A stretch of 64,000 bases of DNA from an uncultured Planctomycetales bacterium (GCA_964595465.1 CAZQQI010000006.1:655-64654), one strand, 5' to 3'; positions 7,417 through 64,000 are shown, counted from the stretch's first letter. Notes: generated by a model from the sequence alone, not told the origin. Numbers and translations: made by a program.

Positions 7417-7420
7417 GGGA

Positions 7421-47515: not shown

Positions 47516-48721
47516 ATGAAAAAGATCGGGATCATTACCAGCGGCGGTGATTGCGGAGGCTTGAACGCGGTCATTAAAGGAGCCGCGCAGATGGCCAATG
47601 ATAAAGGTGTGGAATGTTATATTATTCCTAACGGATACGCGGGATTATATAACCTCGAGCAGTTTGAAGAGCTTGTTAAATTAACTCCGGACCGTCTGGA
47701 TCAGATCAATAATAATCTCGCGGGTTCTGAAGCCGGTCATTCCCGGGTCAAGATCAAAAAGATCCAGGACGAGCAGAAATATGACCGGATCAAACGAGGA
47801 TTAAAGAAGTTCGGCATTGAGGGTCTGGTGATCTCCGGCGGTGATGATACCGGCAGTGTTATTGTGGATCTGAATGAGAACGGCATCCCCTGTGTGCACG
47901 CTCCCAAGACCATGGACCTGGACCTGCAGACCTATTCCGTCGGGGCGGATTCCACCATCAGCCGCATCGCTGAGTTCGCTGAGGACCTTAAGACGACCGG
48001 ACGCACCCATAACCGTATTATTGTTGTAGAAGTGTTCGGCCGCTATGCCGGTCACACAGCCTTTCGCGGCGGTGTCGCGGCTGACGCTGACGCGGTGCTG
48101 ATCCCGGAGGTTCCGGTGGATTTTGATGCCTTATATGAGGATGTTAAAAAGACATTCTGCAACCGGGTGACTATGACCGATGTCAACGCCGGGACGTATC
48201 TGATCATTGTGGCTGAAGGTCTGCGCAACGCCGACGGTTCTGAGATCGTGGATGAATCCGCGGGGCTGGACGCGTTCGGGCATAAAAAGCTGGCCGGCGC
48301 GGGAAAATATGTCTGTCAGCAGTTGACCAAACGGTTCAAGACCGATGACAGCATTAAAGAATTCATGAAAAAAGAAAAGATGTTCGTGGAGAATATCTAC
48401 GAAGTGCCGGAAGTCCGTGCTGTGACCCCGGGTCATCTGGTGCGCTGCGGACATGCCTCGGCCTATGACGTGAATTTCGGCAAAGAAGCCGGAGCCGCGG
48501 CGATTCAGCTTCTGCTGGAAGGGATCGCCGGTGTGACCGTCGTTAAGGTGGAAGGCGATGAGATCCGCTACATGGAGACCGCCAAGGCCATCGAACAGCG
48601 CCATGTGGATCTTAAGCTTGTCGCCCTGCATGAACGGCTGGGCCTATCATTCGGCCGCAATCCTGAGGCCTTTAAAGCGAAATTTCAAAAGGTTGAAGGT
48701 CCGATTGAGCGGCACTTGTAA
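47516..48721 (+). CDS. 6-phosphofructokinase, probably pyrophosphate-dependent (PFK family)
   Basis: The N-terminus is GIITSGGDCGGLNAVI. ISGGDDTG is the GGDD variant associated with PPi-dependence (GGDG in ATP-PFKs). PKTMDLD has Lys where ATP-PFKs have Gly. Confidence 0.7.
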   Translation: MKKIGIITSGGDCGGLNAVIKGAAQMANDKGVECYIIPNGYAGLYNLEQFEELVKLTPDRLDQINNNLAGSEAGHSRVKIKKIQDEQKYDRIKRGLKKFGIEGLVISGGDDTGSVIVDLNENGIPCVHAPKTMDLDLQTYSVGADSTISRIAEFAEDLKTTGRTHNRIIVVEVFGRYAGHTAFRGGVAADADAVLIPEVPVDFDALYEDVKKTFCNRVTMTDVNAGTYLIIVAEGLRNADGSEIVDESAGLDAFGHKKLAGAGKYVCQQLTKRFKTDDSIKEFMKKEKMFVENIYEVPEVRAVTPGHLVRCGHASAYDVNFGKEAGAAAIQLLLEGIAGVTVVKVEGDEIRYMETAKAIEQRHVDLKLVALHERLGLSFGRNPEAFKAKFQKVEGPIERHL

Positions 48722-48772
48722 TCATGTTAAACTAAGGGCGGTGGAGATGGTCTCTGCCGCCCTTTTTTTATT

Positions 48773-50215
48773 TTGAGCCGGGACAAAAACATGTCCGTGA
48801 AAAAGATCTTTCCCACCCTGCTTACTGTTTTTATTCTTTTATGTTTATGCGGCTGGTATGGCTGCCGCAGTTATCAGGCCTATGACCGCATGAGTGATGT
48901 GAAGATGACCGTTGACGAGGCAGTTTATATTTGGATCGGTATGCAGCTGATCGAGAATCCGTATGATTATTCGGCTACCGGCTACGCGTTATTTAATGAA
49001 AAGACACGGGAAAGGGATCTGCCGTCTTATTTTTACCGGCCCCTTTTTAAGCACCCTCCTCTGTTTTCCTATTCGCAGGCGTTGTCTTTAAACTTTATCC
49101 CGCATGAATCATTGCGTTTTATTTTCCCGAGTCTTTTAGCAGGAATCCTCATGATCCCTTTGGCCTTCGGTATTGGTTTACTTTTAAACGGACGGTTAAC
49201 AGGATTACTCGCGGCCCTGATCACAGCCATGGATCCGGTGCGCATTATGTGTTCCCAAAAGATCTGGATGGATACCATGCTGGGGTTTTTTATGGTTTTG
49301 GGGATTTATTTATTTTTATTGGCGATGCACAAAAAAAAGGATGGCTATTTTACCTGCAGCGGCCTGGTCTTGGGGCTGGCCGGCCTGGTGAAATATCCCG
49401 GGTTATTGGCCTGGTTTGCGGTTCTGGTGTATGTTGCGCTGTACCGCCGGGAAGTCTTGCGGAAAAGCCGTTTTCTTTTCGCTGCCGTCCTTCCTGTTTT
49501 GATGCAGCTCCCCTGGATCGGATGGAACATCCGCGTTTACGGTTGGGGGTTTCTTACGGATCCCTTTGCTCAGCATGGAGGGTTCCGAATGCCGATCGTC
49601 GTTATTCTGATTGGTATGGCTGTTTTAATGTTTTTATTCGTTTTTTTTACTAGGTTTGGGAAGAAGCCGGCATCATATCGGCCCGACAGGCAAAGTCGCA
49701 ACGAAAGCGTTTTTTTATGGATATTACGCCTGGGCGTACTGCTGGCACTGGGGGTTTTCCTGATCAAGGACTATGGTCTGCAACGTTTTGCTTTTTTCAA
49801 TATGCCTCATGTCACCTGGGCCCAGGGATATTTTTCTGGTGCGCCGAGGATATTCTATATCGGGCGCATGATCCAGTTTAATTATGTGTATCTGCTCGGT
49901 TTTATTGCGCTTATAGTCCCGTTCCCTAAGGGAAAAGGATCGGGTTTATTGAAGACCTATATGGTAATTGTATTGCTGTTTTTTATTTTATGGGGAAATT
50001 ATCAATCCCGTTATATCCTCGCCCTGATCCCGGTTCTGGCTGTCTTCAGCAGCAGCATAATTGTGCGTTCGCTTAAGATCTTCGCGGAATTTGAACCTCC
50101 GTCCCTCCGTCTCACCCTTCAATCCGTGCTTCTGATCATGCTGGTTCTGGCGTTGTCACGCACAGCCATGATCAACCATCTGGTCAGCTTTACCAATGAT
50201 ATGTGTTATTTCTGA
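48773..50215 (+). CDS. GT-C membrane glycosyltransferase, ArnT/PMT-like (GT39/GT83-type)
   Basis: It has about 12 predicted transmembrane helices. The first periplasmic loop carries DEAVY…G and HPPL, a characteristic of ArnT/PMT_2-type polyprenyl-phosphate-sugar-dependent transferases. Confidence 0.55.
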   Translation: MSRDKNMSVKKIFPTLLTVFILLCLCGWYGCRSYQAYDRMSDVKMTVDEAVYIWIGMQLIENPYDYSATGYALFNEKTRERDLPSYFYRPLFKHPPLFSYSQALSLNFIPHESLRFIFPSLLAGILMIPLAFGIGLLLNGRLTGLLAALITAMDPVRIMCSQKIWMDTMLGFFMVLGIYLFLLAMHKKKDGYFTCSGLVLGLAGLVKYPGLLAWFAVLVYVALYRREVLRKSRFLFAAVLPVLMQLPWIGWNIRVYGWGFLTDPFAQHGGFRMPIVVILIGMAVLMFLFVFFTRFGKKPASYRPDRQSRNESVFLWILRLGVLLALGVFLIKDYGLQRFAFFNMPHVTWAQGYFSGAPRIFYIGRMIQFNYVYLLGFIALIVPFPKGKGSGLLKTYMVIVLLFFILWGNYQSRYILALIPVLAVFSSSIIVRSLKIFAEFEPPSLRLTLQSVLLIMLVLALSRTAMINHLVSFTNDMCYF

Positions 50216-50227
50216 AAGACGTGATCT

Positions 50228-52069
50228 TTACGGCAGGACCCGGAAAATGAAACTTTCCCGGTTGCTTAAAATCCGTTCAAAGCCGGGATGACGATCCATG
50301 TTCTCCAGCTTTTCATTCACCGGCTCAGGACCAAAGCGCTGAGCATCCCTGCGGGTGACAAGAATGTATGAGAATCCCTGGCGAATAAGGTTATGATGCA
50401 GGTGTTCAAGATCGTCATGGAAGGCATGCGCGAAGGCCAGACGATAATCTTGGCTCCAGACGTCAGCCCGCATATCCATGCCGATGACCAGCTGATTATC
50501 TGTGAACATAAAGACTTTGGTGTTAGCCGGCAGATATTCTCTCAACCAGAGGTAGCCGTCCATTTCCCTGTCCGAGTTCCAGTAAACTCCATACGTCCAT
50601 TGTGAGTGGTTGAACTGGTATTTGTATTTCCCGGATTGAAACGTCACGATCAGGATAAACATAAGGGTGATGGCCGGAGCAATAAGCGGATGGCGCAGTT
50701 TTTTCAGCAGGATAAAGATCCCTTCTGCGGCCAGAAATGATGCCGGGATAGCGAACAGCATCCAGAACCGGAAGGCGAACAGGCCGATCGGCAGGTTGAA
50801 GGTCTTGCTGTTCATGCCCAGAAATGTGAAGACTAGCCAAAATATGATCGTTGAAAAATAATAACGCTGATGAGGTTGAGAGGTTCGAAAAATACGGATG
50901 CAGGTATAGATCAGTCCGAGAAGTGCAAGAAAGCTGAAAAAGAAACCCAGACCTTTTGGATTATTGATCCAATTGTATTTGGGAAAAGTGATGTAATCGG
51001 CCAGAGTATAGGCTTCTGTGGCGGTGCCGCCGGATGCAGCAAAAATATTTTTAGCAACAGTCCCGGTTGGTGCGGCGGCGGCATAAACCGTGTCTTTACG
51101 TGTAATCACCTCGGATTTTCCAGCCAGCATGTCCATTGCGACAGATCCCCACCAGAGAGCGGCGATCAGGATACCTCCTAAAATGGCGGCTATGACGTTT
51201 TTCCAGGCCCCCCTTCCTCTGTAGGAGATCGCGTAAGCAGCCAGCATTAAAAGGGCCATAATTGCGAATTTGATCGCCTGTGTCGGCTGGACCAAAGGAA
51301 TGGCGGCACAGCAAATTGCGGCGGGAACGATTTGTTTTTTGTCGGTCAGACATTTCATCAGGAAATAAAATGCCGGGAAAAATAAAGTGACTGCTAAAGC
51401 ATGCGCCCAGATAAAATGCGATAGATAGCACGGGGCAAGTAAGAGAAAGAATGTGGACAGCAGAGCCTTGTCCTGGTCCCGCGACAGTTCCCGGGCCATG
51501 ATATAGAAAAAAAGAAATCCCAGCGAGATGATCAGGCCGTTAAAGAATTTTAAAACCCAATGCAGAGACGGATGGATCTGATGCAGAAGCCCCATGATGA
51601 TCGCGTATCCCGGCGGATAAGGATTCAGGTAATGGAATGTGCCTGATGGAGGGCTGATATTTTTTTCCAGCGCGACATATTTACTGCTGACCGCATGCGA
51701 CCAGGGGTCATCATCTTCCAGCCAGGGGTACTGAAACGCGCCGTGGATGTAGATTAGTGCTGCCAGGGCAAAGATCAAGGCCAGGATGATGACCGTTTGC
51801 CATTTGCCGCGGTCCGGCCGGAATACGACGGGTGAACTGAACCTTCCCCCCCCTTTCAGGCGGCGCAACGGCAGAACGATTCCCAATAGGGCCGTTCCCA
51901 GGAAGATCCGCCAATCAATGGGGATGTGCAGAACGTGCAGGATGACGCCGAGGATCGGGATGGCTGCCAGGCCCAGGGCGAGCTTGTACAGGAGAGAACC
52001 CTTTTGAAGAGGCAAGGAGCCTAATCCGTAGAGCATGAAGGAAAAAATGATGACTATCAGTATGAACAT
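50228..52069 (-). CDS. Large polytopic membrane protein, GT-C-like candidate (613 aa)
   Basis: It has about 14 predicted transmembrane helices and an EDDDPWSH loop motif. It is the distal gene of the long minus-strand EPS operon. Confidence 0.4.
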   Translation of the reverse strand: MFILIVIIFSFMLYGLGSLPLQKGSLLYKLALGLAAIPILGVILHVLHIPIDWRIFLGTALLGIVLPLRRLKGGGRFSSPVVFRPDRGKWQTVIILALIFALAALIYIHGAFQYPWLEDDDPWSHAVSSKYVALEKNISPPSGTFHYLNPYPPGYAIIMGLLHQIHPSLHWVLKFFNGLIISLGFLFFYIMARELSRDQDKALLSTFFLLLAPCYLSHFIWAHALAVTLFFPAFYFLMKCLTDKKQIVPAAICCAAIPLVQPTQAIKFAIMALLMLAAYAISYRGRGAWKNVIAAILGGILIAALWWGSVAMDMLAGKSEVITRKDTVYAAAAPTGTVAKNIFAASGGTATEAYTLADYITFPKYNWINNPKGLGFFFSFLALLGLIYTCIRIFRTSQPHQRYYFSTIIFWLVFTFLGMNSKTFNLPIGLFAFRFWMLFAIPASFLAAEGIFILLKKLRHPLIAPAITLMFILIVTFQSGKYKYQFNHSQWTYGVYWNSDREMDGYLWLREYLPANTKVFMFTDNQLVIGMDMRADVWSQDYRLAFAHAFHDDLEHLHHNLIRQGFSYILVTRRDAQRFGPEPVNEKLENMDRHPGFERILSNRESFIFRVLP

Positions 52070-52073
52070 AAAT

Positions 52074-53225
52074 TTAGCGGCGTTTTTTCAGTCGGATGAG
52101 ATTTTTCAGGGTTTTAAAGAGTGACGGCGCATGGCAAAGGATATTAGAATACGCCTGGTTGGCCAGCGGGCAGGCGCATTCTTTGGCGCGGATGGAGCGC
52201 CGTACCTCCCTCGCCTGTTGTGAATGCCAGATTTTCTGGAAGTCATAATCCGTATCTCTAAGCCGGCCCAGTGGTTTGTTATATCCCAGGACACAGCAGG
52301 GCCAGACCTCGCCGTCATAATTGATGTGGACATTGGAAATGCCGCCATAGCAGGGAATGACCTGACGGTTTTCTTTTATAATTCTGGCGGCCAGGTCATA
52401 ATAGGTTAACCGCAGGGCCTCGGTGGTCTTGGCCAGGTCTTTTTTATGTTTTATGTTTTTCAATATTTTCTGTTTGAATTGAGTTATCAGGCGCTCGTAT
52501 TCTTCCCCGGACGGCGCGATCAGGTGCCCGATATTATGAAATTCCGTGCGCTGCTCAGCGATCTCGTTGCGGTAGCTTTCGACACCCTGCTGATGGACAT
52601 AATCCTCGATCTCAGCCAGTTTATGCAGATTGAATTTAGAAACCACGGTGCCGAGTTCTAGATGGAAATTGGAATATTCCCGGGCAATCTGTTTGAGGAG
52701 CTTAATGGTCTGTTCGAGCTTGGCAAAGTTTCCCGGAACACCGCGGATCTCGTCGTGCAGGGTGCCGACAGCATCGATAGACGGTTTAATAGAAAATTGG
52801 ATATCATGACCGTGCTTTTTGATGATCTCCAGGCTCTGACGCGCATAATCCGCGATCCGTTCGGGCAGTAGAGCATTGGTCGGAGTATGGATGATCTTGG
52901 GGGTTAAGTGGCGGCAGGCCAGCTCGATGATCTGAGGGAGATCTTTTCGTAAAAACGGTTCCCCGCCGCTGATGTTGAAGAAATAGACATGCCCCAGGGA
53001 TGTGAAGATTTTTTCGATCTCTTCGAGGGTGAGATCGTTCTCCCGGCATGCCGGATTGTCCCGGTAATGCCGGCCGATCTGACAGGTCTTGCAAAGCGAA
53101 TTACACGCGGCGGTCACGGAATAGGTTAACGTGATCGGGGTCGAAGATCTGCACAGTCCCAGACGGGCCAGCTGATAGTTGATGGTTTTGGGGAATATAT
53201 AAAAAATAAAATCAGAGAGCTTCAT
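52074..53225 (-). CDS. Radical SAM protein with C-terminal SPASM/twitch-like Cys cluster
   Basis: CNSLCKTC (CxxxCxxC) is present at residues about 41-48. C-terminal cysteine pairs are CYGG…WPCCVLG…CACPLANQAYSNILC. It overlaps the pyruvyl transferase gene by ATGA. Confidence 0.75.
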   Translation of the reverse strand: MKLSDFIFYIFPKTINYQLARLGLCRSSTPITLTYSVTAACNSLCKTCQIGRHYRDNPACRENDLTLEEIEKIFTSLGHVYFFNISGGEPFLRKDLPQIIELACRHLTPKIIHTPTNALLPERIADYARQSLEIIKKHGHDIQFSIKPSIDAVGTLHDEIRGVPGNFAKLEQTIKLLKQIAREYSNFHLELGTVVSKFNLHKLAEIEDYVHQQGVESYRNEIAEQRTEFHNIGHLIAPSGEEYERLITQFKQKILKNIKHKKDLAKTTEALRLTYYDLAARIIKENRQVIPCYGGISNVHINYDGEVWPCCVLGYNKPLGRLRDTDYDFQKIWHSQQAREVRRSIRAKECACPLANQAYSNILCHAPSLFKTLKNLIRLKKRR

Positions 53226-54454
53226 GAGGTATCCCTAGTTAGATCAAAAATCGTTGAGGCATTCAATCGCGCCGCGGCTTTTTGGTTGGAAATTTTTTCT
53301 TTTAAGTTAGATTGAACGGAAGTATTCTTAAAGTAATCCAAGGCTGTTGTTATTTTCTGATAGGCCGCTGCGGCTGAAAAGTTTTCGATGTCGAGAATAA
53401 AATTTTTCAGGCCCAGTTCATTCATAAAATCATATGTTTTTTTGCCATATGCTATTCCGATCATCGGTTTGAAGGTTTCAGCAAAAAAAATCAGGGAGTG
53501 GAACCTCATCCCGATTAAAAGATCGGCACATTTAATGATGCCTTTAATTTCCTGAGGTGGAAATTCCTGGTTTACTGGGAAGCATTCTTGTTTATTATTT
53601 ACGATTTTCATAATATCATCTGCGGAGATCCGATCATCGTTTGGTGGTTTGCAGGACATCGGCACGAAAAAAACAAAGGCATTATGGGTTTCAATTATGT
53701 TATCAACGAGTCTGGCACATTCAGAAATAAAGGTATTGTATTTATTTTCTCCACCAGGAATCCAGGTTTTTGAATTTAAATCTTGCAGATGCTTTACATA
53801 CCACCGCCGGATGGTAAAAACGACTTTTAACCGGGAAGGCTCTACTAGCTGGTTGTCTCCATTAAAGGGAGTTTTTGTTTTGGATGTCGTTAAGGTTATG
53901 GCAGGGTCAGCAGTTACTTTTAACAGCTGATCTTTAACGCCGATGTCGCGCAGTATTTTTTTGGAATAATGTCCCCGCAATCCGATGAAATTCATACGGT
54001 TTAGAGTGAAGCGTGTTAAAATTTTTCCATTTCTTGTTGTGATGGGGCCTGCCCCTATTCCATACAGTGCTGTTTTTTTGAATAGCATTTGAGCAAATAA
54101 AATTTTAAAGAGCCAGAATGGGATAAAAAAAGGATGTGTTTGGTCTTGAAGGATCGTCCCCCCTCCTGTAATAAAAATTGAACAACAGATAAAGGCTTTG
54201 ATAGTTTGAAATATCCACGTGATTTTACGAAAACCTTTTTCGTTAGGTTCCAAAAGACCAAAGCGTCCGGAATAAATAAATTTTTCATCAGGATAATGGT
54301 GTTGTGAAAATTGGGGGTTATCAGAAAATATCGTAAAGTCCCCTTTTGGAAAATGTTTACGAAGTTGCTTTAATAAACATATCATTAGTGCTTCATCACC
54401 TGCGTTGCCGTTGCCATATCCTCCGGAGATTAAAATGTTGTTTTTCTTTCTCAT
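53222..54454 (-). CDS. Polysaccharide pyruvyl transferase (CsaB/WcaK family)
   Basis: The family-typical N-terminus is ILISGGYGNGNAGDEALM. Length is 410 aa. Confidence 0.75.
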   Translation of the reverse strand: MRKKNNILISGGYGNGNAGDEALMICLLKQLRKHFPKGDFTIFSDNPQFSQHHYPDEKFIYSGRFGLLEPNEKGFRKITWIFQTIKAFICCSIFITGGGTILQDQTHPFFIPFWLFKILFAQMLFKKTALYGIGAGPITTRNGKILTRFTLNRMNFIGLRGHYSKKILRDIGVKDQLLKVTADPAITLTTSKTKTPFNGDNQLVEPSRLKVVFTIRRWYVKHLQDLNSKTWIPGGENKYNTFISECARLVDNIIETHNAFVFFVPMSCKPPNDDRISADDIMKIVNNKQECFPVNQEFPPQEIKGIIKCADLLIGMRFHSLIFFAETFKPMIGIAYGKKTYDFMNELGLKNFILDIENFSAAAAYQKITTALDYFKNTSVQSNLKEKISNQKAAARLNASTIFDLTRDTS

Positions 54455-55237
54455 TTAAATTTTTTCTCCAATGATGTAAAAAATGTGTGCGTATAAAAAT
54501 TTAATGATTAATGGTAGAGGTAGTTTTTCAATAAGATAAACCCAAAGAAACCATCGCGGAAATCGCCCGGATTTGACGTAGTCGATATACGGAATTTCCC
54601 ATTCAAATTGTGAAAAATTAACAGGGTTGCGATGAAGCCGAATATCACGAAACCCTACTGAATCCGGCCATACAGGACAATCAACAACGCCGATCTTCAG
54701 ATTTTTTAAACCATAAGATGCCATGAATTCTTTAAGAAATTTAGGGCTGTTAAAGTTTATATCGCCATGGGTCCATTGAATTTTTGTGCGCCAATGTGCA
54801 AATTTATGCAATGGAAAGCCGATATTCCGCTTGTTAACAGAAAATACAGCAACATATTTCTTTGAAATACGCATCATTTCTTTTATTAGGGCTTCTTTGT
54901 CGGGATATGTGGGAATGAATGCGAAATTCCAAACGAAATCAAAAGAGTTATCGTTGAATTCTGTATGATCAATGTTAGGGACATCAACAAAATGGATATT
55001 TTTTCTAATATTTAATGCTTCATAAAACTTTGCGGAGCGCTGATCGCCATTGACCAGAGTAACATGGAGCCCGGCATGCGCGAAATCAAAAGAGTATAGT
55101 GATGGCGCTGCTTTTGCTCCGTGCGCTGGGAGTTCACATACAGTGTTAATATTGTATTCTTTAACAAAATTTTTAAGTTTTTTCCCTAAAGAAAATCGTT
55201 CGTAATTAACGCCAAAAACTTCTGATTCTTTATGCAT
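54455..55237 (-). CDS. Hypothetical protein (possible divergent methyltransferase-like fold), EPS operon
   Basis: No confident motif was found. Its stop is immediately adjacent to the upstream gene, consistent with operon membership. Confidence 0.35.
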   Translation of the reverse strand: MHKESEVFGVNYERFSLGKKLKNFVKEYNINTVCELPAHGAKAAPSLYSFDFAHAGLHVTLVNGDQRSAKFYEALNIRKNIHFVDVPNIDHTEFNDNSFDFVWNFAFIPTYPDKEALIKEMMRISKKYVAVFSVNKRNIGFPLHKFAHWRTKIQWTHGDINFNSPKFLKEFMASYGLKNLKIGVVDCPVWPDSVGFRDIRLHRNPVNFSQFEWEIPYIDYVKSGRFPRWFLWVYLIEKLPLPLIIKFLYAHIFYIIGEKI

Positions 55238-55238
55238 T

Positions 55239-56234
55239 TTAAATGAGTCCTTTATTATGATACCATTGAAGTGTTTTTGATAGTCCTTCTTCTAGATCAA
55301 TTTGAGGTTCATATTTCAACTCGCTTTTCGCTTTGCTGATATCTAAAATTCTATCGTGTGTTATTGATGAGATATTTCGCGCGGTCACCACGGGTTTTTT
55401 ATTTATTGATTTCATCAATTTTTCTTGAAGCCACGCTAAAAATTTTATTAAAAATACTGGAAAGTATACATAAAAAATTTTTTTGTTTAAAAATTTTTTT
55501 ATCACATTAAGAATTTCTTTTTGGCTGAATGATCGCGTCGGTCCGATCAGATAGGTCTCCCCTGTTTTTGCGTGGTCAACGGCAAGGATCAGTGCATCGA
55601 TCAGATCGTCAATGTATAAAGAAGGCGCAAGATTTTTGCCTAAACCGATTTTTGGATAGAATCCTTTTTTCGCAACTTTTGTCATGGTGAAGAAATCCCC
55701 TTTAAATCCTGGTCCGTATATCATACATGGGCGAATAATCGTTATCGGCAGGCCTTGTTCAATATATGATAACGCCGCGTGGTCGCTTTCATGTTTAGAT
55801 CGTTGATATGGTGTATATGGATTGCATTCAGTGTTTTCGTTAATGCGATGATCTTTTAGGATGCCATAGGCTGCCGTGCTGCTGATGTGAATAATTTTTT
55901 GAATGGATGGATTTTTACAACATTCATTTAAGATATTTTTTGTGCCTTCAACATTAACGGCGCGGAATTTCTTAAAAGCAGATTCAGATGGAAGATCGTG
56001 GCCCATGAGTGCAGCAAGATGAAATACGCAATCGATATTGTCGGTAGTGCCTGATAAGGTTTCAGGAGAAGTGATATCCCCTATATGAAAGTCTAAGTTG
56101 GATTGTTGGCCCAACATTTTTTTTGCTTTATCAGCATCTCTGACTAAGCAACGGCACCGATGTCCCAGTTTTAGAAGCCTTTTGACCAGGTTCTGCCCTA
56201 TAAAGCCGGTTGATCCAGTGATGAGAATATTCAT
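55239..56234 (-). CDS. NAD-dependent epimerase/dehydratase (extended SDR)
   Basis: The NAD-binding motif is ILITGSTGFIGQNL and a YxxxK catalytic pair is present. Length is 331 aa. Confidence 0.8.
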   Translation of the reverse strand: MNILITGSTGFIGQNLVKRLLKLGHRCRCLVRDADKAKKMLGQQSNLDFHIGDITSPETLSGTTDNIDCVFHLAALMGHDLPSESAFKKFRAVNVEGTKNILNECCKNPSIQKIIHISSTAAYGILKDHRINENTECNPYTPYQRSKHESDHAALSYIEQGLPITIIRPCMIYGPGFKGDFFTMTKVAKKGFYPKIGLGKNLAPSLYIDDLIDALILAVDHAKTGETYLIGPTRSFSQKEILNVIKKFLNKKIFYVYFPVFLIKFLAWLQEKLMKSINKKPVVTARNISSITHDRILDISKAKSELKYEPQIDLEEGLSKTLQWYHNKGLI

Positions 56235-56240
56235 AAATAA

Positions 56241-57515
56241 TTATGGTTGTGGCAATTCTAAAAGCTTATAGATTTCTTTTTTCATTAATTCTGATGCTTG
56301 ACCTGGACAAGAATTTACTTTTTTTGAAAATTCTTCTAATTTGTCAAGTGGATAATTGTGTAATGACCCTTCAAGTTTCTCCTTCAAATCGGAAAAGTCC
56401 GGTTTGAGAGTCGGGGCGATTGTTTTTAGTTCAGTAATAAGGCAGTTCTTGACAACAACATTTTCCGGGAAAGGGACGAAAATAATTGGTTTTTTTAGGA
56501 GTGCGGTATTCAAACACAATGATGTGAAGTCGGAAATAACAATATCAGCAACAATCATATACTCGACCCAATCATCCTCAGGTTCCCGGAATAAGATTCC
56601 TTCTTTTTTTTGAGTACGCAAATAATTACCCCAAACACGTTTATTCTTAGGTTGAGGGCGATGCTCGCGAGGGTGTATGTTTAAAATAAAATCATATTCG
56701 GATGTTAGAGAATTAATTTTTTTTAAGAATTTGTCACCATGCATATTGAAAAGACAATAGGGTCCCCAAGTACTGAGTATAAAAACAGCGGGTTTGTCAG
56801 TGGTTAAACCGATTTTATGGCGAAGGCGTGAACGGTGATTATACTTGTCAAGCATTTTATCATTTTGCAGGAGTCCAACAACCTTGATAACTTCATCAAA
56901 TTGAGGATCGATTTGGATTGCCGCAGTTTTGTTCCAATCGCTTGAGGAAAAAATACAATCAAAGCGCATTGCACCTCTCCTTAGATTTCGATAAACATAG
57001 TTACTATAGGTGAAACAATCATTGTCTTTTCGTTTGCTGCACACCTTATTAGTGAATCGTGAGAGATTTCGCTTTCCAGATTCAATGCCGTGACGAATCC
57101 ATAAAGTTTTGCAGCGTTCATTAGTTACTAAATGTCGCTGCCATCCTGATGAAGTAATGATAAGATCCCATTTATAGATAAAGGCTTTTAAAATTGAAAT
57201 TTTTTTATATGGAAGCTTATTTAAAATAAAATTCTTGCCATTTTTTCTATCAAATCGAAAGAAATCTAATAAGCGGATTTTCAGGCGGTCATCTGTTTTG
57301 ATAAGATCAATTGTTTCAGCAAGATATTCGGCCTGCAGTGATCGATCACAAACGATCAGAATATTTCTTTCGTTCTTTGATTCTGTTTTTTTAGATGATT
57401 TTATTAAAGGGTAAGTTAGAATCCCCAGAAATCGGAACAGATGATCAGTCAGTAAATATTCAAAAGCATCGCAGATGAATTGTTTTAAAGTTGTATGTTT
57501 TCCTAAAATTTTCAT
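56241..57515 (-). CDS. CDP-glycerol glycerophosphotransferase (TagF/TagB)-like protein
   Basis: The size and C-terminal region (…ILSTWGPY…, …ISDFTSLCLNTALLKKPIIF…) resemble the TagF family. This is a weak assignment. Confidence 0.35.
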   Translation of the reverse strand: MKILGKHTTLKQFICDAFEYLLTDHLFRFLGILTYPLIKSSKKTESKNERNILIVCDRSLQAEYLAETIDLIKTDDRLKIRLLDFFRFDRKNGKNFILNKLPYKKISILKAFIYKWDLIITSSGWQRHLVTNERCKTLWIRHGIESGKRNLSRFTNKVCSKRKDNDCFTYSNYVYRNLRRGAMRFDCIFSSSDWNKTAAIQIDPQFDEVIKVVGLLQNDKMLDKYNHRSRLRHKIGLTTDKPAVFILSTWGPYCLFNMHGDKFLKKINSLTSEYDFILNIHPREHRPQPKNKRVWGNYLRTQKKEGILFREPEDDWVEYMIVADIVISDFTSLCLNTALLKKPIIFVPFPENVVVKNCLITELKTIAPTLKPDFSDLKEKLEGSLHNYPLDKLEEFSKKVNSCPGQASELMKKEIYKLLELPQP

Positions 57516-57516
57516 T

Positions 57517-58389
57517 TTATTTTCTTATAAATAGAGTGCTTATTATGCCAAAACTTTTTATTATGGTGCTTATGACAGCAAGGATCCACATTTGAATAAA
57601 TAATTTTCTTGTTATTGCCACGCTGCGTTTATTGATTCTTGTTGTTAATGTTTTCGGTTTTGGTGGCAAAAAGGATTTCAGTGTATTTGAGATAATTTTA
57701 TTTTTCGATATTTCGGTGTTCTTATAGTATGGAACGACTCCCTTTCCGATTCGGTATGATTTTTTTATTAAACCTTTAAAATTTCTTGTGGGGTGCTTAA
57801 CGATTGCTGCAGGGGAAAACAGAAGCCTATAATTTTTTGATGTGATATTTTTTGTCCATTGTCTGTCCCCTCCTGATTCTACACATGGGAAAAGCCCTTC
57901 TTTTTGAAATATGTTTTTTGGAGCAAACAGATTAGCTGTTTGGCAGACGCCTTTTTTGATTGAGGTTTCTGTGTTTAAAAAGGTTACAAAATCATATAAT
58001 TCAACTGGAGATCTTTTATTTCGGAAAAAAAGGTTGATTTTTCCACCGACTAGATCTGCTTTCCCATCGATAATCGGCTTGACCCCTTCCTCTAGCCAGT
58101 TATTACTCGGAATACAATCAGAATCTGTAAAGGCCAAAATTTCTCCTTGTGCGGTTTTAATGCCGGTATTGCGCGCAGCATAAGACCCTTTTTTGCCTTC
58201 AAAAGCGTAGACAGTATTAGGCAGTTGTTCGACTAAATTCTTGATACTTTCAGTGGAATTATTATCAACGACAATGATTTCGTAAAGATGCCGCGGATAG
58301 CTCTGATTTTGTAAAGCGTCCAGACACAGCTTAAGACGCTGCGAGTCGTTATGGACGGGAATTATAACTGAAATAAAGGGGTTATTCAT
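57517..58389 (-). CDS. GT2 family glycosyltransferase (copy A)
   Basis: Motifs are ISVIIPVHNDSQRL and FTDSDCIP. It overlaps the upstream gene by 8 bp. Confidence 0.8.
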   Translation of the reverse strand: MNNPFISVIIPVHNDSQRLKLCLDALQNQSYPRHLYEIIVVDNNSTESIKNLVEQLPNTVYAFEGKKGSYAARNTGIKTAQGEILAFTDSDCIPSNNWLEEGVKPIIDGKADLVGGKINLFFRNKRSPVELYDFVTFLNTETSIKKGVCQTANLFAPKNIFQKEGLFPCVESGGDRQWTKNITSKNYRLLFSPAAIVKHPTRNFKGLIKKSYRIGKGVVPYYKNTEISKNKIISNTLKSFLPPKPKTLTTRINKRSVAITRKLFIQMWILAVISTIIKSFGIISTLFIRK

Positions 58390-59527
58390 TGTAGCCGTTT
58401 ATGTGAAGGTTTGTTAGGACTTCATCCGGTAATCGTGTTAATTCATAAATTCTGGCTGTCAATGTTGCCGGATCAGCTGTGTTTTTGTCGAACATTTTGG
58501 TCTTGTTATTATATGTTTTGTTGATCTGCTGTTTGACCCACCATGCGATCTTTTCACGGGATGTATTGTCGTCCTGAAAAACACTCAGGGTAAAGGCATT
58601 TTCAAATCCACACGGATTATAAGGATATCCGAAGCGGTTATCCACCAATTGCTCTATATATTGCTGGGAATTCATATAGTCATAGCATACCTGAAAAACA
58701 GGACTTTGCCAAAAGCTATGATCCGGAAAAACACCTTTCAGTAAAGCAAATCCGTACATGTTGAACGCGTGGTATCCGATGGATTTATAAATAAGTTCTT
58801 CTGAAAGCGGTTTTATGCATTTTTTCAAAGAGCGTGTTATTTTTTTTCTGAGTGATATGTTTTTTAAACGGTGAAGGGGTAGAGGGTGATAGATGAGCCC
58901 TGTCTTGAGGACGTCAAGATTGAGGGATAAGGAATCCAGAAAATGACGGATTTTGGGGTAGATGCCATACTGATCATGTTTGTCAAGAAGGGCTGAGCAG
59001 GCCGCGAACCAGAGCTGATGATTAAACGTCGGATCTAAGGCGAGTTTCGTTCCGTCAATTTCCAGCTTGTGCCAAAGAGTATTGTTTTTGTCATACGTAT
59101 GGAGGCAAAAGACTTCACGGGCAAGGTTAATATACTTCGGGTCATTTAATATTTCACTGGCTTTAGCTAAAGCTTCGAAGGTCCATGCCTGTCCGATGAG
59201 TCCGTTGCAGCGATCCTTTTTACCCTTCTTGCGGTGAAAAAAGGAAAAACCGTGAGGCCGGGCTTCGGGAGAACAAAGATATTCTGCTAGCTTTTGAATA
59301 TGATCTAAATATATTTCTTTTTCATCAAGTTCATAGCATTTCGCCAGGGTGATGAGCCAGTGAGCTGAATTTCGTACCGGTGTTTCAGGATCATCATAAG
59401 GGCCGTTATGACCGCTTTGAAATTTGCCGTCTTGAAAACTGCAAATCAAGTTTTTGTTTGTAACATTAAGGATGAATTCTGCTGCAGTCATCTCAAGCTC
59501 GTATGATTTGTGATAAGTTTTTAACAA
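58382..59527 (-). CDS. Hypothetical protein (381 aa), candidate polysaccharide-modifying enzyme; full-length partner of GT2 copy A
   Basis: No secure family assignment could be made; secondary-structure-like helical repeats suggest an alpha/alpha-toroid. Its C-terminal 75 aa are duplicated at 60379-60684. Confidence 0.4.
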   Translation of the reverse strand: MLKTYHKSYELEMTAAEFILNVTNKNLICSFQDGKFQSGHNGPYDDPETPVRNSAHWLITLAKCYELDEKEIYLDHIQKLAEYLCSPEARPHGFSFFHRKKGKKDRCNGLIGQAWTFEALAKASEILNDPKYINLAREVFCLHTYDKNNTLWHKLEIDGTKLALDPTFNHQLWFAACSALLDKHDQYGIYPKIRHFLDSLSLNLDVLKTGLIYHPLPLHRLKNISLRKKITRSLKKCIKPLSEELIYKSIGYHAFNMYGFALLKGVFPDHSFWQSPVFQVCYDYMNSQQYIEQLVDNRFGYPYNPCGFENAFTLSVFQDDNTSREKIAWWVKQQINKTYNNKTKMFDKNTADPATLTARIYELTRLPDEVLTNLHINGYNE

Positions 59528-60386
59528 TCGTTATAACTCTTCCCGAAAATGTAGCAAATCGGCATAACCACGCGACCCCCCATATCGATAAGAGCTTTTT
59601 GGACATGTCCGGCGTTCCCCGTTCCTCAGTAAGTTTTCTGATGTGCCTGGGGCTGGGCGGCAGTAATCCCAACAATGTGCGTGTGAAAAATTTTCTTTTG
59701 GGTTCTTTTAACTCCAGCCAGATATAGGGCTGACCTTTCCCGACACGGAAGGATTTTTTCAAAAGAGGTATTAATTTTCTTGCGGGATGCTTAACGGTCG
59801 CGTCTTTCTGGTAGTAGATTTGAATGCCTTGTTGTGTTGCGCTTTTTGTCCATATGACATCACCACCAGAACAACACGTTGGGAATAAACCGATTATATC
59901 GAACACGTTTTTTTTAACAAAAAGATTCGCTGTCTTTCCTATTTTACGTCGATGAATATTTTCTTTGTGTTGCATATTTACAATGGAATCATAGAATTCA
60001 GCAGAACTTTTTTCTGCACTATAGATGAAAGCGATTTTTCCGCCTACAAGATCAGCGGTGCCTTCGATGATAGGTTTTGAACCTTCGTGCAGCCAATCTT
60101 GGCAAGGGATACAATCCGAATCGGTAAACGCGATAATTTCGCCTTGTGCGATTGAGAGCCCTTTATTGCGCGCCGCGTATGACCTCTTCTCCTTTTCAAA
60201 GGTGTAAATGGTCTTAGGATACCTTTCGACCAAGGATTTGATATCTTCGGTAGAATTATTGTCAACGACAATGATTTCGTACCGGTCAGCGGGATAAGTT
60301 TGATCATGTAGGGCATCGAGGCATTTTTTTAAACGCTGGCTGTCATTATAAACCGGGATTATAATCGAAATAAACGGGTTATTCAT
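59493..60386 (-). CDS. GT2 family glycosyltransferase (copy B, paralog of 57517-58389)
   Basis: Motifs are ISIIIPVYNDSQRL and FTDSDCIP. It is about 55% identical to copy A and has the same 8-bp overlap with its upstream ORF. Confidence 0.8.
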   Translation of the reverse strand: MNNPFISIIIPVYNDSQRLKKCLDALHDQTYPADRYEIIVVDNNSTEDIKSLVERYPKTIYTFEKEKRSYAARNKGLSIAQGEIIAFTDSDCIPCQDWLHEGSKPIIEGTADLVGGKIAFIYSAEKSSAEFYDSIVNMQHKENIHRRKIGKTANLFVKKNVFDIIGLFPTCCSGGDVIWTKSATQQGIQIYYQKDATVKHPARKLIPLLKKSFRVGKGQPYIWLELKEPKRKFFTRTLLGLLPPSPRHIRKLTEERGTPDMSKKLLSIWGVAWLCRFATFSGRVITIVKNLSQIIRA

Positions 60387-60684
60387 TGTGATGGTTTATC
60401 TGAATGTTTGCTAGGATTTTCTGCGGTAATCGTGTCAATTCATAAATTCTTGCTGTCAGCGTTGCCGGATCAGTTGTGTTTTTATCGAACATTCCGGTCC
60501 TGTTATTATATGTTTTGCTGATCTGCTGGTTGACCCACCATGCGATTTTTTCCTGGGATGTATTGTCATGCTGAAAAACACTTAGTGTGAATGCGTTTTC
60601 AAAGTACGCACTTAACTTATCCGCACAATTGAGAATCGGGATTATTATGGAGACTTCAGGCAATATTTTTTTGTCTATGGACAT
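60379..60684 (-). pseudogene. Truncated duplicate (C-terminal approximately 75 aa) of the 58382-59527 gene
   Basis: YFENAFTLSVFQHDNTSQEKIAWWVNQQISKTYNN…TLTARIYELTRLP is near-identical to the C-terminus of the 381-aa protein. The N-terminal 25 aa are unrelated, giving a 101-aa ORF. Confidence 0.65.
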
Positions 60685-60695
60685 AAGTTAAAAAT

Positions 60696-61889
60696 TCAAT
60701 TTTGCAATACAGATTCAAGCTTATGATTCAGGTTTTCTGTATTAAAGTGGCATTTAATAAAATGTCGTGCTGCTTTTGCGCATTTTTGCGCGTTTTCCCA
60801 ATTGGATAGAACATATTTTATCTTTTCGTATAATGCAACCGGATCAGATTCTGGCACCAGCCAGCCAGTTTCGTTGTCCGTGATGAGTTCAGGGATGCCG
60901 GAATGATTCGAGGAAATGACCGGGATGCCGCGGGCCATAGATTCCATTAAAACGACCGGGATCCCCTCTTTGTCCCCGGTATGCGGGTCTGTTTTACTCG
61001 GAAGAATGAAAATATCAGTATTGTCATAATATTTTCCGATTTGATCATTCGGGATAGACCCGAGCATATTGACATGCCGGTCCAGTTGATAGTCTTTAAT
61101 AAGTCGATTTATGACCGGTTCCATTGGTCCGGATCCAATAATTGTATAGGAAAATCGGTAGTATTGCTTTAATAAAGATAATGCTTTAAGCGAATCATCA
61201 TATCCTTTTTTGGTGACCAGTCTTCCAATAGTGAGGAACCTGACAGGATTCTGCATGTTTAGAGATCGTGCCTGATAGACATGTTTTTTAATATCAATAC
61301 CCATGTGCAGTATATTGAGCTTTTTTTCAGGAGCGCCGAGTTGAATTAATTTTTCTTTCCAGTGATTAGAAATAGGTAATAAGATATCAGCGGTATTAAA
61401 AATATCATGATAAATGTTAGATCCGTATTTTTTAAGATAGGCGGACATGTCAATGCCATGAAAAAAAACCGCAACGTTTGCGTATGGCTGTAAGAATTTT
61501 AAATATTTAAGTTTGTTGGCAACGTAGCCAAAGTGGATGATGAAAGCGTCCACGTCTTCGTATTCGGCTAGTTGGACAGAATAAATAAATGAGCCTAACG
61601 GTCTTTTTTTTAATGCTGAGAAAAATATTTTTAGAATGCGCAAACCGTATTTCGGGAAAGCCTGACATAAATATTTAAAGAATATGAGCAAGCGGCCCAT
61701 AATTTTTTTGGGGCAATGAAGATACCGGACTTTATTTCTAATCTCATGGGAAAAGTTATCACCAGGTTTCCCCTTGTGCATAGCACATATGTATATATCA
61801 TGGCCGCGGGCCATCATCCCTCTGATCTGGTTCAGAATAAAGGTTTGGGTCGTCGCCGGAAATTTGTATACGCAAAAAATTATTTTCAT
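60696..61889 (-). CDS. GT4 family glycosyltransferase (GT-B fold, Glycos_transf_1)
   Basis: The C-terminal EGIPVVLMESMARGIPVISS has the E-x7-E-like motif of retaining GT4 enzymes. Confidence 0.8.
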   Translation of the reverse strand: MKIIFCVYKFPATTQTFILNQIRGMMARGHDIYICAMHKGKPGDNFSHEIRNKVRYLHCPKKIMGRLLIFFKYLCQAFPKYGLRILKIFFSALKKRPLGSFIYSVQLAEYEDVDAFIIHFGYVANKLKYLKFLQPYANVAVFFHGIDMSAYLKKYGSNIYHDIFNTADILLPISNHWKEKLIQLGAPEKKLNILHMGIDIKKHVYQARSLNMQNPVRFLTIGRLVTKKGYDDSLKALSLLKQYYRFSYTIIGSGPMEPVINRLIKDYQLDRHVNMLGSIPNDQIGKYYDNTDIFILPSKTDPHTGDKEGIPVVLMESMARGIPVISSNHSGIPELITDNETGWLVPESDPVALYEKIKYVLSNWENAQKCAKAARHFIKCHFNTENLNHKLESVLQN

Positions 61890-61910
61890 TTGTATGGGTG
61901 CCTATTTGAA

Positions 61911-62636
61911 TCAATTTTTCTTTATTCGGGCTTTTGTAACAATCTGGTAACCAAACAGAGATGGAAACTGTTTTAGGATTGGATAAAAAAGACGCTTAGG
62001 CCGTATCCATCGGGGAAATTTATAGCATGGCAGAACATCGGTCAGTTCAAATCCGGCATTTTCGAGCAAGTCGTGAAATGAATTTAGCGTAAAATGGTGA
62101 ATATGTTCTGCATTGTGAATAAGGTAATCCTTTGGGAAATCCCCCCGTAATAAATCCAGACGGTTTTGGTACCAGGCAATATTAGGGAAAGAGGCAATTA
62201 AAATGCCATTATCTTCTAGCAAAGATCTCAGTTGGTGAAGGGCTTTTTCCGGCTCGAAAAGGTGTTCAAGCACCTCTAAAGCAATGGCAAAATCGAATCG
62301 CTTATTATTCATTTTTTCAAGGAGATCATCGTGCTCTAAATTGATTTGATGCAATTCATCATAGAAAGGAGCGGCTAGGCTCAAGGCGGTTTCTGATATG
62401 TCACAGCCTGTAAGCACTGTTGAAGCGCTATAATTTTCTTTTAATAATTTCCCAAGGGTGCCTTCGCCGCAGGCTGAATCAAGGATATGGACAGTGTCCT
62501 TCCCCATGTGTTCTTTAATCATATGAATTGTTTTAACAATTCTTTCTGGTATCCACATGCCTTCCCGTGTGTGAAGACGTTGTTGAGCATTGCGTTTTAA
62601 CCAATAATTTTCATAAAAAGTTTTAGAATTAATCAT
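61911..62636 (-). CDS. Class I SAM-dependent methyltransferase
   Basis: Motif I is ILDSACGEGTLG. Length is 241 aa. Confidence 0.7.
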   Translation of the reverse strand: MINSKTFYENYWLKRNAQQRLHTREGMWIPERIVKTIHMIKEHMGKDTVHILDSACGEGTLGKLLKENYSASTVLTGCDISETALSLAAPFYDELHQINLEHDDLLEKMNNKRFDFAIALEVLEHLFEPEKALHQLRSLLEDNGILIASFPNIAWYQNRLDLLRGDFPKDYLIHNAEHIHHFTLNSFHDLLENAGFELTDVLPCYKFPRWIRPKRLFYPILKQFPSLFGYQIVTKARIKKN

Positions 62637-62640
62637 GTAA

Positions 62641-64000
62641 TCAGATCTCCGTGAGCTTAAGCAGCAACCCCTTAATATCTAAATTATAATATTTAAACGA
62701 GTAAAAAGAGCAGAATGTGTATATGCAAATAGCAATACCAATCAGCAGGGCAGACATTGCCAAATTAGAACCACATGAGCTAAATATTACCGATTTTATC
62801 ACAATTATTACTAAGGTCATAACCAAAGTATTAATAAGCGGAAGCAAAAACATGATAAAAAAGTCCTTAAAATTGAAGTTAAGTATATTTCTGACTTTTA
62901 TATACGCCCATATATTAGGGATGATTGAAGAGATGACAACTGCCATGGCCGTTCCATTAAAGCCGTATGTTTTTGATAATGGATAAATTGTTAGTGCTAA
63001 CATTATTAATTGAAGGAACTGCAGCTTTGTTGCAATATGGGGTCTCCCGATTCCTAAAAATATCGGTCCTGTTGTGGCGCCAATCGATCGAACTAAGCCC
63101 CACACCGCTAAGATCTGGATAGCAGGAATGATCGGGACCCATTGCTCTCCCAAAATAGGGTATATGAGGGCGGGGCTAAATATAATAATAATGGATATTA
63201 ATGGGAAAGTGATGAAAGCAATCATTAAATGTATTTGCAAATAAATTCTTTTTAAGCGGAGTCGGTTATTTTGAACCTGAGAATATACGGGAAAAAGCAC
63301 TTTTGAAACGATATGCGTTACTTCGGTTACAGGCAGGTTAGAGATTAAGTATGCCATTTGATAAAGTCCCAGTGCCGTAGCGCCGATTATTTTTCCTACA
63401 AAAAGATCGTCGCCTTTGGTAATAAGAAAAACGATAATATGAGAGCCCAATATCCATTTTCCGAATTTAAAAAGCTCTTTGAGGGCTTTTCTGCTAACAA
63501 AAAATTTAGGGCGATACGGATCGAGTTGATATGATAAAAAACAGTGTGTTAAAATCCCGGCAAGATGTCCCCAGACGAGAGCCCAGACATTTTTGTACAA
63601 TACAGCCAATAGGATCGATGTAAGCAGGGTTATACTATTTGAAGCTAAATGCAAAGTAAAATATTTTTTAAAATTCAATTCTTTTTGAAAGAGTACGGTG
63701 GATATGTTGGTAAAAGAAGAAAATATGACAGAAAGTCCCATAACTTGGAATAATAAAGCCATTTGGGGTATGTCAAAGAATTTTGCCCAAAAGTTAGCAG
63801 TGAAAAATATAAAGGCGAAAATTAATCCGGCCCTTATGATCCCGAATGTCCAAGAGGTATTTAAGTACTTATCGATGTCTTGGCGACTGAAAAATTTTTT
63901 TTGAATTATAGCTGTCTGAAATCCGGTTTCGGAGAATGTTTTTAATGTTAAAAGGAACAATGCCGCAATACTAAAGAAACCAAAATCTTTAGGTGTTAGA
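62641..64000 (-). CDS. Wzx-like oligosaccharide flippase (MOP/polysaccharide biosynthesis protein family), 5' end beyond window
   Basis: It has 12 or more transmembrane helices. The reading frame stays open to the window edge upstream of the ORF-track start; position 63960 is TTG, not a real start. It is the first visible gene of the minus-strand EPS operon. Confidence 0.65.
   Translation of the reverse strand, partial: LTPKDFGFFSIAALFLLTLKTFSETGFQTAIIQKKFFSRQDIDKYLNTSWTFGIIRAGLIFAFIFFTANFWAKFFDIPQMALLFQVMGLSVIFSSFTNISTVLFQKELNFKKYFTLHLASNSITLLTSILLAVLYKNVWALVWGHLAGILTHCFLSYQLDPYRPKFFVSRKALKELFKFGKWILGSHIIVFLITKGDDLFVGKIIGATALGLYQMAYLISNLPVTEVTHIVSKVLFPVYSQVQNNRLRLKRIYLQIHLMIAFITFPLISIIIIFSPALIYPILGEQWVPIIPAIQILAVWGLVRSIGATTGPIFLGIGRPHIATKLQFLQLIMLALTIYPLSKTYGFNGTAMAVVISSIIPNIWAYIKVRNILNFNFKDFFIMFLLPLINTLVMTLVIIVIKSVIFSSCGSNLAMSALLIGIAICIYTFCSFYSFKYYNLDIKGLLLKLTEI

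Follow-up and report, generated by a model that had tools for sequence, protein, structure and literature searches.

A repeated epimerase-glycosyltransferase segment and a probable recombination scar in a glycan locus of an uncultured bacterium

Do two similar gene junctions in a bacterial glycan locus record a recent duplication, or an older layout disturbed by recombination? We analysed positions 57517-60684 of a 64,000-nt stretch of DNA recorded as coming from an uncultured Planctomycetales bacterium (GCA_964595465.1, CAZQQI010000006.1:655-64654); the whole stretch is called the window below. Read on the minus strand, the locus consists of an open reading frame (ORF) of 101 codons, a GT2-family glycosyltransferase gene (GT2-B), a partner gene of the AglQ/Agl32 family, and a second GT2-family gene (GT2-A). 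The gene annotation used for comparison was that of NCBI record GCA_046542295.1, contig JBKHBP010000005.1, labelled as a Candidatus Omnitrophota metagenome-assembled genome (MAG). A preliminary description had seen here a tandem duplication of a partner-GT2 module, in which one partner had decayed to the 101-aa remnant and the GT2 copies had diverged under diversifying selection, while gene conversion or constraint acted on the overlap region. Its coordinates hold throughout. What we find, though, is reshuffling of the ordinary kind among surface-sugar genes; a fresh duplication with positive selection is not supported. The locus adds one more case to the known mosaic glycan loci in which a hybrid glycosyltransferase occurs together with a chimeric remnant of genes. 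The 101-aa ORF itself is, in our moderately confident view, a deletion scar in a low-GC mosaic glycan island that bears an insertion sequence (IS), derived from an ancestor with two modules.

The repeated segment and the two glycosyltransferase genes

A single blastn alignment of 577 nt at 76.8% identity connects 60603-60033 with 58606-58036, both on the minus strand. Each copy contains AglQ codons 308-381 followed by GT2 codons 1 to about 118. The identity is two-tiered, not uniformly low, and in this respect the repeat proposed earlier stands. Homology sets in abruptly at 60603/58606, that is, at AglQ codon 308, and the alignment ends where the identity of GT2-B switches, at a DLVGGKI motif near GT2 codon 118.

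The upstream AglQ tail, denoted AglQ' (60379-60603, the last 74 AglQ codons and the stop), is similar to 58385-58606 at the end of the partner gene. The copies are 85.6% identical over 222 nt (74 codons) and 80% identical in amino acids. A 238-nt blastn query gives 86.1% (E 1e-70), tblastn of the fragment gives E 4e-34, and sliding windows range between 0.85 and 0.90, in agreement with the 85-90% over about 220 bp reported before. Nonsynonymous divergence (dN) is 0.11 and synonymous divergence (dS) 0.39, with dN/dS 0.29 (rough 95% range 0.17-0.64); the differences are distributed over the three codon positions as 11/5/16. The same codon is used at 45 of 56 conserved residues, where 24 are expected (z 6.1).

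The GT2 part of the repeat behaves differently. In the comparison of GT2-A with GT2-B, NG86 dS is saturated along the alignment from about codon 8 on. Identical codons at conserved residues number 38 against 32.6 expected in the N-half (z 1.3), and the C-half has z 1.0. The young part of the repeat, the only one with similarity at synonymous sites, is made up of the last 74 AglQ codons and the GT2 start codon. Its right edge lies at the AglQ stop and GT2 start, with at most some seven GT2 codons (MNNPFIS) included. The synonymous divergence is thus neither uniform nor unsaturated over the repeat unit, as it should be after a recent duplication. Copying of the whole 577-nt segment in a single event is not sufficient either, since the segment has two ages (dS 0.39 versus saturation).

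GT2-A (57517-58389, minus strand, 290 aa) and GT2-B (59493-60386, minus strand, 297 aa) are both AglE-like. They share the PF00535 N-terminal domain (E 2e-28 and 99.8 bits in GT2-A, E 8e-28 and 97.9 bits in GT2-B; cutoff 23.3), DxD-type motifs, a length of about 290-300 aa and a hydrophobic C-terminal tail. No named equivalog (AglE, AglG, EpsD, MftF or others) could be assigned, as all NCBIfam scores are far below the cutoffs (the best is 108.6 versus 280 bits); "Glycosyltransferase AglE" is a label that some sources put on GT2 homologues. The identity of the two proteins, earlier put at about 55%, is 50.7% over 272 aa and bimodal, being 72% in codons 1-120 and 31-32% thereafter.

Relatives of the two proteins were sought in a database of 5.8 billion proteins. 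The closest relative of GT2-A is P0167 (352 bits, versus 291 bits for GT2-B). The best matches of GT2-B have 53% identity, some being named AglE, and GT2-A ranks only about 43rd among its matches. In the C-half tree, GT2-A groups with P0167 and P0241 (the A-type) with 99% bootstrap, whereas the grouping of GT2-A with GT2-B has 0%. The C-half of GT2-B is 59% identical to a second subtype, the B-type, and 39% to GT2-A; in other phyla B-type GT2 genes are found directly upstream of AglQ. In the N-half tree, by contrast, GT2-A and GT2-B are sisters (82% bootstrap), with 72% identity to each other and at most 64% to any other protein examined. The N-half of GT2-B (codons 1-118, 60033-60386) is 55.6% identical to B-type proteins, no more than A-type proteins usually are (56.4%), and 57-64% identical to A-type ones. 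The two copies are therefore mutual closest relatives in the AglQ tail and the GT2 N-half, but not in the GT2 C-half or over the whole gene.

GT2-A and GT2-B are old paralogues of different subtypes. GT2-B gives the impression of a mosaic, in which an A-like N-half passes into a B-type C-half at the DLVGGKI motif. The similarity of the N-halves, the nucleotide-sugar-binding part, is ancient and exists at the protein level only, since dS is saturated and codon identity is at the chance level; the sequences point to an ancient event, exchange or duplication, whose end coincided with a domain boundary near codon 118. Within GT2-A, the GC content at third codon positions falls from 0.41 (codons 1-120), which matches the upstream block, to 0.29 (codons 121-290), which matches the downstream block. 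This weak hint may indicate a further recombination junction inside the gene.

As to selection, the GT2 C-half gives crude values of dN 0.76, dS above 2 and, with dS saturated, dN/dS below 0.4; wherever dN/dS can be estimated, it is well under 1. At saturated dS a ratio above 1 cannot be shown, a proper dN/dS between the two genes is not computable, and the diversifying selection suggested in the preliminary description finds no support. The duplicated module shrinks to a repeat of the partner 3' end and the GT2 5' half, as there is no recent pair of GT2 duplicates: dS is saturated and the C-halves belong to different subtypes. Of the two causes proposed for the similarity of the partner ends, conversion (or later copying) is indeed needed, whereas constraint cannot explain synonymous conservation over 222 nt.

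Origin of the chimeric open reading frame

The 101-aa ORF (60379-60684, minus strand, confirmed by an ORF check) joins 27 codons of a GT2 5' end in frame to 74 codons of an AglQ 3' end. The 27 N-terminal residues, MSIDKKILPEVSIIIPILNCADKLSAY (60604-60684), contain the GT2 N-terminal motif PxVSIIIPxLN and have no homology to AglQ. A short-query BLAST search with these residues retrieved mainly GT2 N-termini, those of the ...VSVIIPVLN type being the best. These codons are the putative 5' end of a former GT2 gene, which would have been either a third one (GT2-C) or the B-type gene in its original form. A finer assignment of origin failed, as only the generic GT2 motif matched and the resemblance to IPVLN is too short to count. 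The ORF had been described as a remnant with an unrelated N-terminus; it is indeed a truncated chimera, but its N-terminus is a GT2 motif and not an arbitrary sequence. The ORF starts 11 nt past the stop codon of the upstream GT4 gene. Its own stop codon overlaps the GT2-B start by 8 bp, ATGAATAA, and the identical overlap is found between AglQ and GT2-A; overlaps of this length had been noted previously.

Several observations bear on the status of this ORF. A Pfam and NCBIfam search of the ORF gave no match, and it is not called as a gene in the NCBI annotation. The fragment spans residues 308-381 of the modelled barrel, 74 out of about 370-390, and most invariant residues lie in the missing part, 1-307. 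Neither a counterpart of the ORF nor a second C-terminal AglQ fragment was found in 80 related loci, as the preliminary description had expected of a remnant not conserved as an independent gene. Judging from these sequence data, the ORF is probably a recombination scar, and a pseudogene.

By far the nearest relative of the AglQ' fragment is the resident AglQ (80%), the next being at about 50%. The fragment retains all 22 family-conserved positions, and none of its 15 amino acid differences from the resident AglQ falls there (P 0.0025). The fragment also has the majority residue of the family at four sites at which the resident AglQ departs from it. Since the differences avoid conserved positions and these four residues agree with the family, the sequences suggest that much of the divergence accrued while both AglQ copies were under constraint.

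The deletion history that we favour would run as follows. The ancestor would have had an upstream GT2 gene followed by the modules AglQ'-GT2-B and AglQ-GT2-A. This order could stem from unequal recombination of GT2 paralogues at the domain boundary, and the AglQ copies would have been kept alike by gene conversion, or duplicated later, when the GT2 genes had already diverged. A deletion would then have taken the upstream GT2 gene from codon 28 on as well as AglQ' codons 1-307, and would have spared the start region of GT2-B, which derives from AglQ.

Several points weigh against this history. Firstly, if only half of the 15 changes occurred on the fragment branch, the support from the conserved sites drops to about P 0.07. 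Secondly, the dN/dS of the fragment does not separate a once functional sequence from one that has been neutral since it was copied. Thirdly, no close relative showing the ancestral state was found, the best AglQ homologue having 51% identity, so that the ancestral layout is reconstructed rather than observed; the search for a single-copy ancestral state, suggested earlier, accordingly came to nothing, the one genome with a common flank (L083, see below) sharing only that flank. Fourthly, a two-module ancestor needs an extra assumption, concerted evolution of AglQ or its later duplication, to reconcile dS 0.39 with saturation. Finally, the A-type genes P0167 and P0241 do not adjoin AglQ elsewhere, and AglQ-GT2-A may be a pairing that is new to this locus.

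Two other variants were considered and rejected. An unequal crossover at GT2 codon 7 followed by a deletion in the same B-type gene would require about 86% identity of scar residues 12-27 (SIIIPILNCADKLSAY) to GT2-B residues 7-22 (SIIIPVYNDSQRLKKC), and these do not match. Nor can the AglQ' fragment go back to the ancient duplication from which the cassette arose, because a non-coding piece could not have held 86% identity for so long, and no other lineage carries such a fragment.

The main rival to the deletion history, unlikely in our estimation, dispenses with a second full-length AglQ altogether. A break near the 5' end of a B-type GT2 gene would have been repaired in one step off the resident AglQ/GT2-A junction, with about 230-580 nt (the AglQ tail and the start or the entire N-half of GT2-A) copied in after codon 27. 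GT2-B would have thereby gained a new start, with the chimeric ORF as a by-product, and a later short conversion would have refreshed only the AglQ part. Before this event, a B-type GT2 starting MSIDKKILPEVSIIIPILN... would have stood directly after the GT4 gene, and there would have been only one AglQ. The sharpness of both homology edges, the position of the resident AglQ as the nearest relative of the fragment and the affinity of the GT2-B N-half to A-type rather than B-type proteins all agree with such a patch. The IPILN of the 27-residue N-terminus also resembles the IPVLN N-termini in loci L012, L033 and L014, to which the GT2-B C-half is most closely related in the locus tree; however, a match of 27 residues is too short to carry weight. 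Moreover, a single event predicts one age over the 577 nt, so that the two ages still call for a second event, and the avoidance of conserved AglQ positions is unexpected in a fragment that was never part of a working gene.

It is improbable that the 101-aa ORF is functional, be it as a leader coupling ribosomes onto GT2-B via the 8-bp overlap or as a small protein made of the last AglQ helices. The fusion is in frame and open and is predicted by one gene caller, its start is close to the GT4 stop, its stop/start overlap is that of AglQ/GT2-A, and the AglQ part combines a dN/dS of 0.29 with retention of all conserved positions. However, an in-frame fusion has a 1-in-3 chance of arising, and by a rough, uncomputed estimate it is not unusual for 74 AT-rich codons to stay open at such divergence. 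The small part of the barrel encoded, the lack of counterparts in other loci and the lack of an NCBI gene call also argue against a function.

A recent tandem duplication of the whole partner-GT2 unit, with fast, positively selected divergence of the GT2 genes and a partner piece held similar, is very improbable. The repeat does exist, inclusive of the 8-bp overlap, the GT2 N-halves are sisters, and in an ANME-1 genome (L002, see below) the GT2 genes that flank AglQ are highly similar at the nucleotide level. On the other hand, GT2 synonymous sites are saturated almost from the start of the gene, each of the two GT2 proteins has nearer full-length relatives elsewhere, their C-halves fall into different subtype clades, and dN/dS lies well under 1 wherever an estimate is possible. 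The order with a B-type gene upstream of AglQ is, in addition, common to several phyla.

The Logan contig SRR11308339_101728 is 100% identical to window positions 64000-60178 and spans the GT4 gene, the 101-aa ORF and both its junctions, and SRR11308339_72088 is 100% identical to 59427-51773. The interval 59427-60178 (about 750 nt, most of GT2-B) is bridged by the MAG contig only; this gap could reflect strain-level variation or low coverage at GT2-B. That the MAG contig erroneously joins two strains or loci at the repeat is hardly credible and largely excluded, even though the source is a metagenome and the body of GT2-B lies between the ends of the Logan contigs, because the independent assembly reproduces both ORF junctions exactly, repeats with 86% identity do not collapse in assembly, and every reading frame is intact.

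The value of these results for the locus is mainly corrective. What appeared to be duplication with diversifying selection is better read as an old conserved layout with a recombination scar, and selection should be invoked only after synonymous sites and outgroups have been checked.

The surrounding glycan island

All genes in the glycan region of the window are on the minus strand. The order of transcription is the GT4 gene, the 101-aa ORF, GT2-B, the AglQ partner, GT2-A and a glycerophosphotransferase-like gene. The GT4 gene (60696-61889) encodes a WcaL-like glycosyltransferase with a PF00534 match (E 8.5e-42) and a TIGR04005 wcaL match (E 2e-71) that is under the cutoff of the latter model. 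The CDP-glycerol glycerophosphotransferase-like gene (56241-57515) matches PF04464 with E 7e-11. Further downstream there are sugar epimerase/dehydratase, methyltransferase and pyruvyl transferase genes, and upstream of the region there are genes for a Wzx-type flippase and another methyltransferase. The ATG of the partner gene (59491) is one nucleotide past the GT2-B stop, and translational coupling across these tightly packed cassette genes is likely. Scans for promoters and terminators gave counts no higher than shuffled controls.

The GC content drops sharply from about 50% in the rest of the window (1-53000) to 35-41% from about 53.2 kb to its end (53200-64000). Just past the window end there is a frameshifted transposase of the IS1595 family. 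A distant relative, L083 (JGI 3300022707 Ga0247389_10000019), has the PMT (37% aa identity) and PFK (73%) flank in common with window positions 47800-50200. Its glycan genes are different, however: an ABC-transporter-type cluster with one A-type GT2 gene and no AglQ. Since other glycan genes stand there beside the same PMT-PFK flank, the glycan locus next to this flank is hypervariable. Based on the low GC content, the IS remnant and the comparison with L083, the region is a typical variable surface-glycan island, probably one that is horizontally exchanged.

Two side observations concern the ends of the island. Beyond the window, in L090 3003-3655 (the same contig, some 235-890 nt past 64000), adjacent ORFs of 92 and 125 aa encode an IS1595/ISXO2-like transposase domain (PF12762 with E 5e-22 in the second ORF); this IS remnant lies between GT4 and Wzx flippase genes. 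At the GC boundary, directly downstream of the pyruvyl transferase gene (about 51800-53220; L001 16267-19263), there are a radical SAM/SPASM gene, a 97-aa ORF and a gene for a 516-aa protein without a Pfam match.

Mosaic O-antigen, capsule and lipooligosaccharide (LOS) loci with gene remnants and hybrid glycosyltransferases are well known, examples being pneumococcal cps, the enterobacterial O-antigen clusters and the Neisseria lgt hybrids. The present locus resembles them in being a low-GC island between conserved flanks, in its IS remnant, in the chimeric fragment at a junction, and in having glycosyltransferase genes whose halves have different histories. Unlike in these loci, the scar here is an in-frame junction of a GT2 start and an epimerase tail that keeps the stop/start overlap for the next gene, and the host is an uncultured member of Omnitrophota.

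The partner gene and its cassette in other genomes

The partner gene occupies 58382-59491 (minus strand, 369 aa from the ATG), with the frame open up to a TTG at 59527 (381 aa). The preliminary description had it as a full gene of 381 aa. It is full-length, but since homologues align only from about residue 12-13, the 381-aa form is probably too long and the protein has 369 aa, as annotated. The deposited protein is the 369-aa one, which is why a search for exact matches to the 381-aa form had no result. A search for homologues yielded 1264 matches, the top 120 being 336-400 aa long. The best AglQ homologue has 51% identity, and identity to all other family members is within 36-51%: it is 45% to P0109, which is named AglQ, and 36-43% to the Haloferax, Natrinema and Natronococcus loci (E about 1e-80 to 1e-95), with 39% and E 5e-83 for that of Haloferax denitrificans. 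Curated models gave no NCBIfam match and only a sub-threshold Pfam match to GH88 (15.6 bits), and a PDB profile search for a sequence homologue found nothing. The modelled structure is an (alpha/alpha)6 barrel with a fold similar to that of AGE-superfamily epimerases, and its top structural match is 5ZIG. From its family and its modelled fold, the partner is predicted to be a uronic acid epimerase of lipid-linked glycans, of the AglQ/Agl32 family.

In Haloferax volcanii, AglQ is required between the additions of the third and fourth sugars and is thought to be a hexuronic acid epimerase acting before the GT2 protein AglE; in Halobacterium salinarum, deletion of VNG1058H/Agl32 leads to glucuronic acid (GlcA) in place of iduronic acid in the N-glycan, and Agl32 requires that its target residue be flanked by GlcA at either side (PMC3827465, PMC12624080, PMC13308652). 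The partner is similar to these proteins in sequence family, fold and top structural match, and sits among AglE/AglG-like GT2 genes, a flippase gene and methyltransferase genes. Its two flanking GT2 genes fit the need of Agl32 for sugars at either side of its GlcA target. Unlike the haloarchaeal genes, it has a bacterial host (Omnitrophota), no aglB oligosaccharyltransferase gene was seen in the stretch examined, and its setting resembles a Wzx-type polysaccharide cluster rather than an N-glycosylation island. GT2-A and GT2-B, in turn, are similar to AglE-type proteins in adjoining AglQ, the function of aglE being tied to aglQ in H. volcanii, but differ in that two subtypes are present and share the N-half.

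The 80 AglQ-containing loci considered come from Desulfobacterota, cyanobacteria, Bacteroidota, Planctomycetota, Chloroflexota, Patescibacteria, methanogens, ANME and haloarchaea. A homologue of GT2-A or GT2-B is located immediately upstream of AglQ in 26 of them, immediately downstream in 37, and on both sides in 15. The best GT2-B homologue on a long contig, P0124 (L084), is directly upstream of AglQ, which is followed by further GT2 genes. A natural epimerase-glycosyltransferase fusion occurs in a Patescibacteria MAG (JAKLIG010000001.1; L055 5983-7956), where one ORF encodes both an AglQ homologue, aligned with query residues 11-374, and a domain that is GT2-A-like, with 39% identity over 286 aa. 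Given the adjacency counts, this fusion and the L084 order, GT2-AglQ-GT2 is an old, widespread and conserved cassette of bacterial and archaeal phyla, apparently a functional one. In an ANME-1 genome of Methanophagaceae (QENJ01000002.1, L002), the GT2 genes flanking AglQ (5117-5966 and 7290-8140) are 79% identical over 858 nt, the outcome of recent duplication or conversion. Since these genes are so similar, recombination between flanking GT2 genes is not unique to the genome studied here. The downstream L002 copy is divided between two ORFs that overlap, and possibly carries a frameshift.

By analogy with the published results on AglQ and Agl32, the two glycosyltransferases would attach adjacent sugars to a lipid-linked oligosaccharide, and the epimerase would invert a uronic acid between or next to them. 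The dependence of Agl32 on flanking sugars would plausibly explain the location of GT2 genes on both sides of the epimerase gene. In the searchable literature, we found no description of the breadth of this cassette in bacteria; the AglQ family is discussed there only for haloarchaea.

A more far-reaching reading can be offered only tentatively. GT2-B would be a working, domain-swapped glycosyltransferase, in which an A-type nucleotide-sugar half is joined across the GT-A domain boundary, at about codon 118, to a B-type acceptor half, the 101-aa ORF would have been kept to deliver ribosomes via the 8-bp overlap, and the bacterial cassettes would make iduronic- or galacturonic-type residues on lipid-linked glycans. 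If this is true, Omnitrophota, cyanobacteria, Desulfobacterota, Bacteroidota and anammox Planctomycetes use Agl32-like epimerases for a reaction so far described only in haloarchaea.

The breadth of the cassette in bacteria is a by-product of the analysis, and of more interest than the finding at the locus itself. Epimerases of the AglQ/Agl32 type, characterised in two haloarchaea only, are widespread in bacteria, where their genes typically lie between, overlap or, in one case, are fused to AglE-like GT2 genes. A testable prediction is that bacteria with the cassette epimerise uronic acids at the lipid-linked stage, and the three genes together may serve as a genomic marker for finding such glycans.

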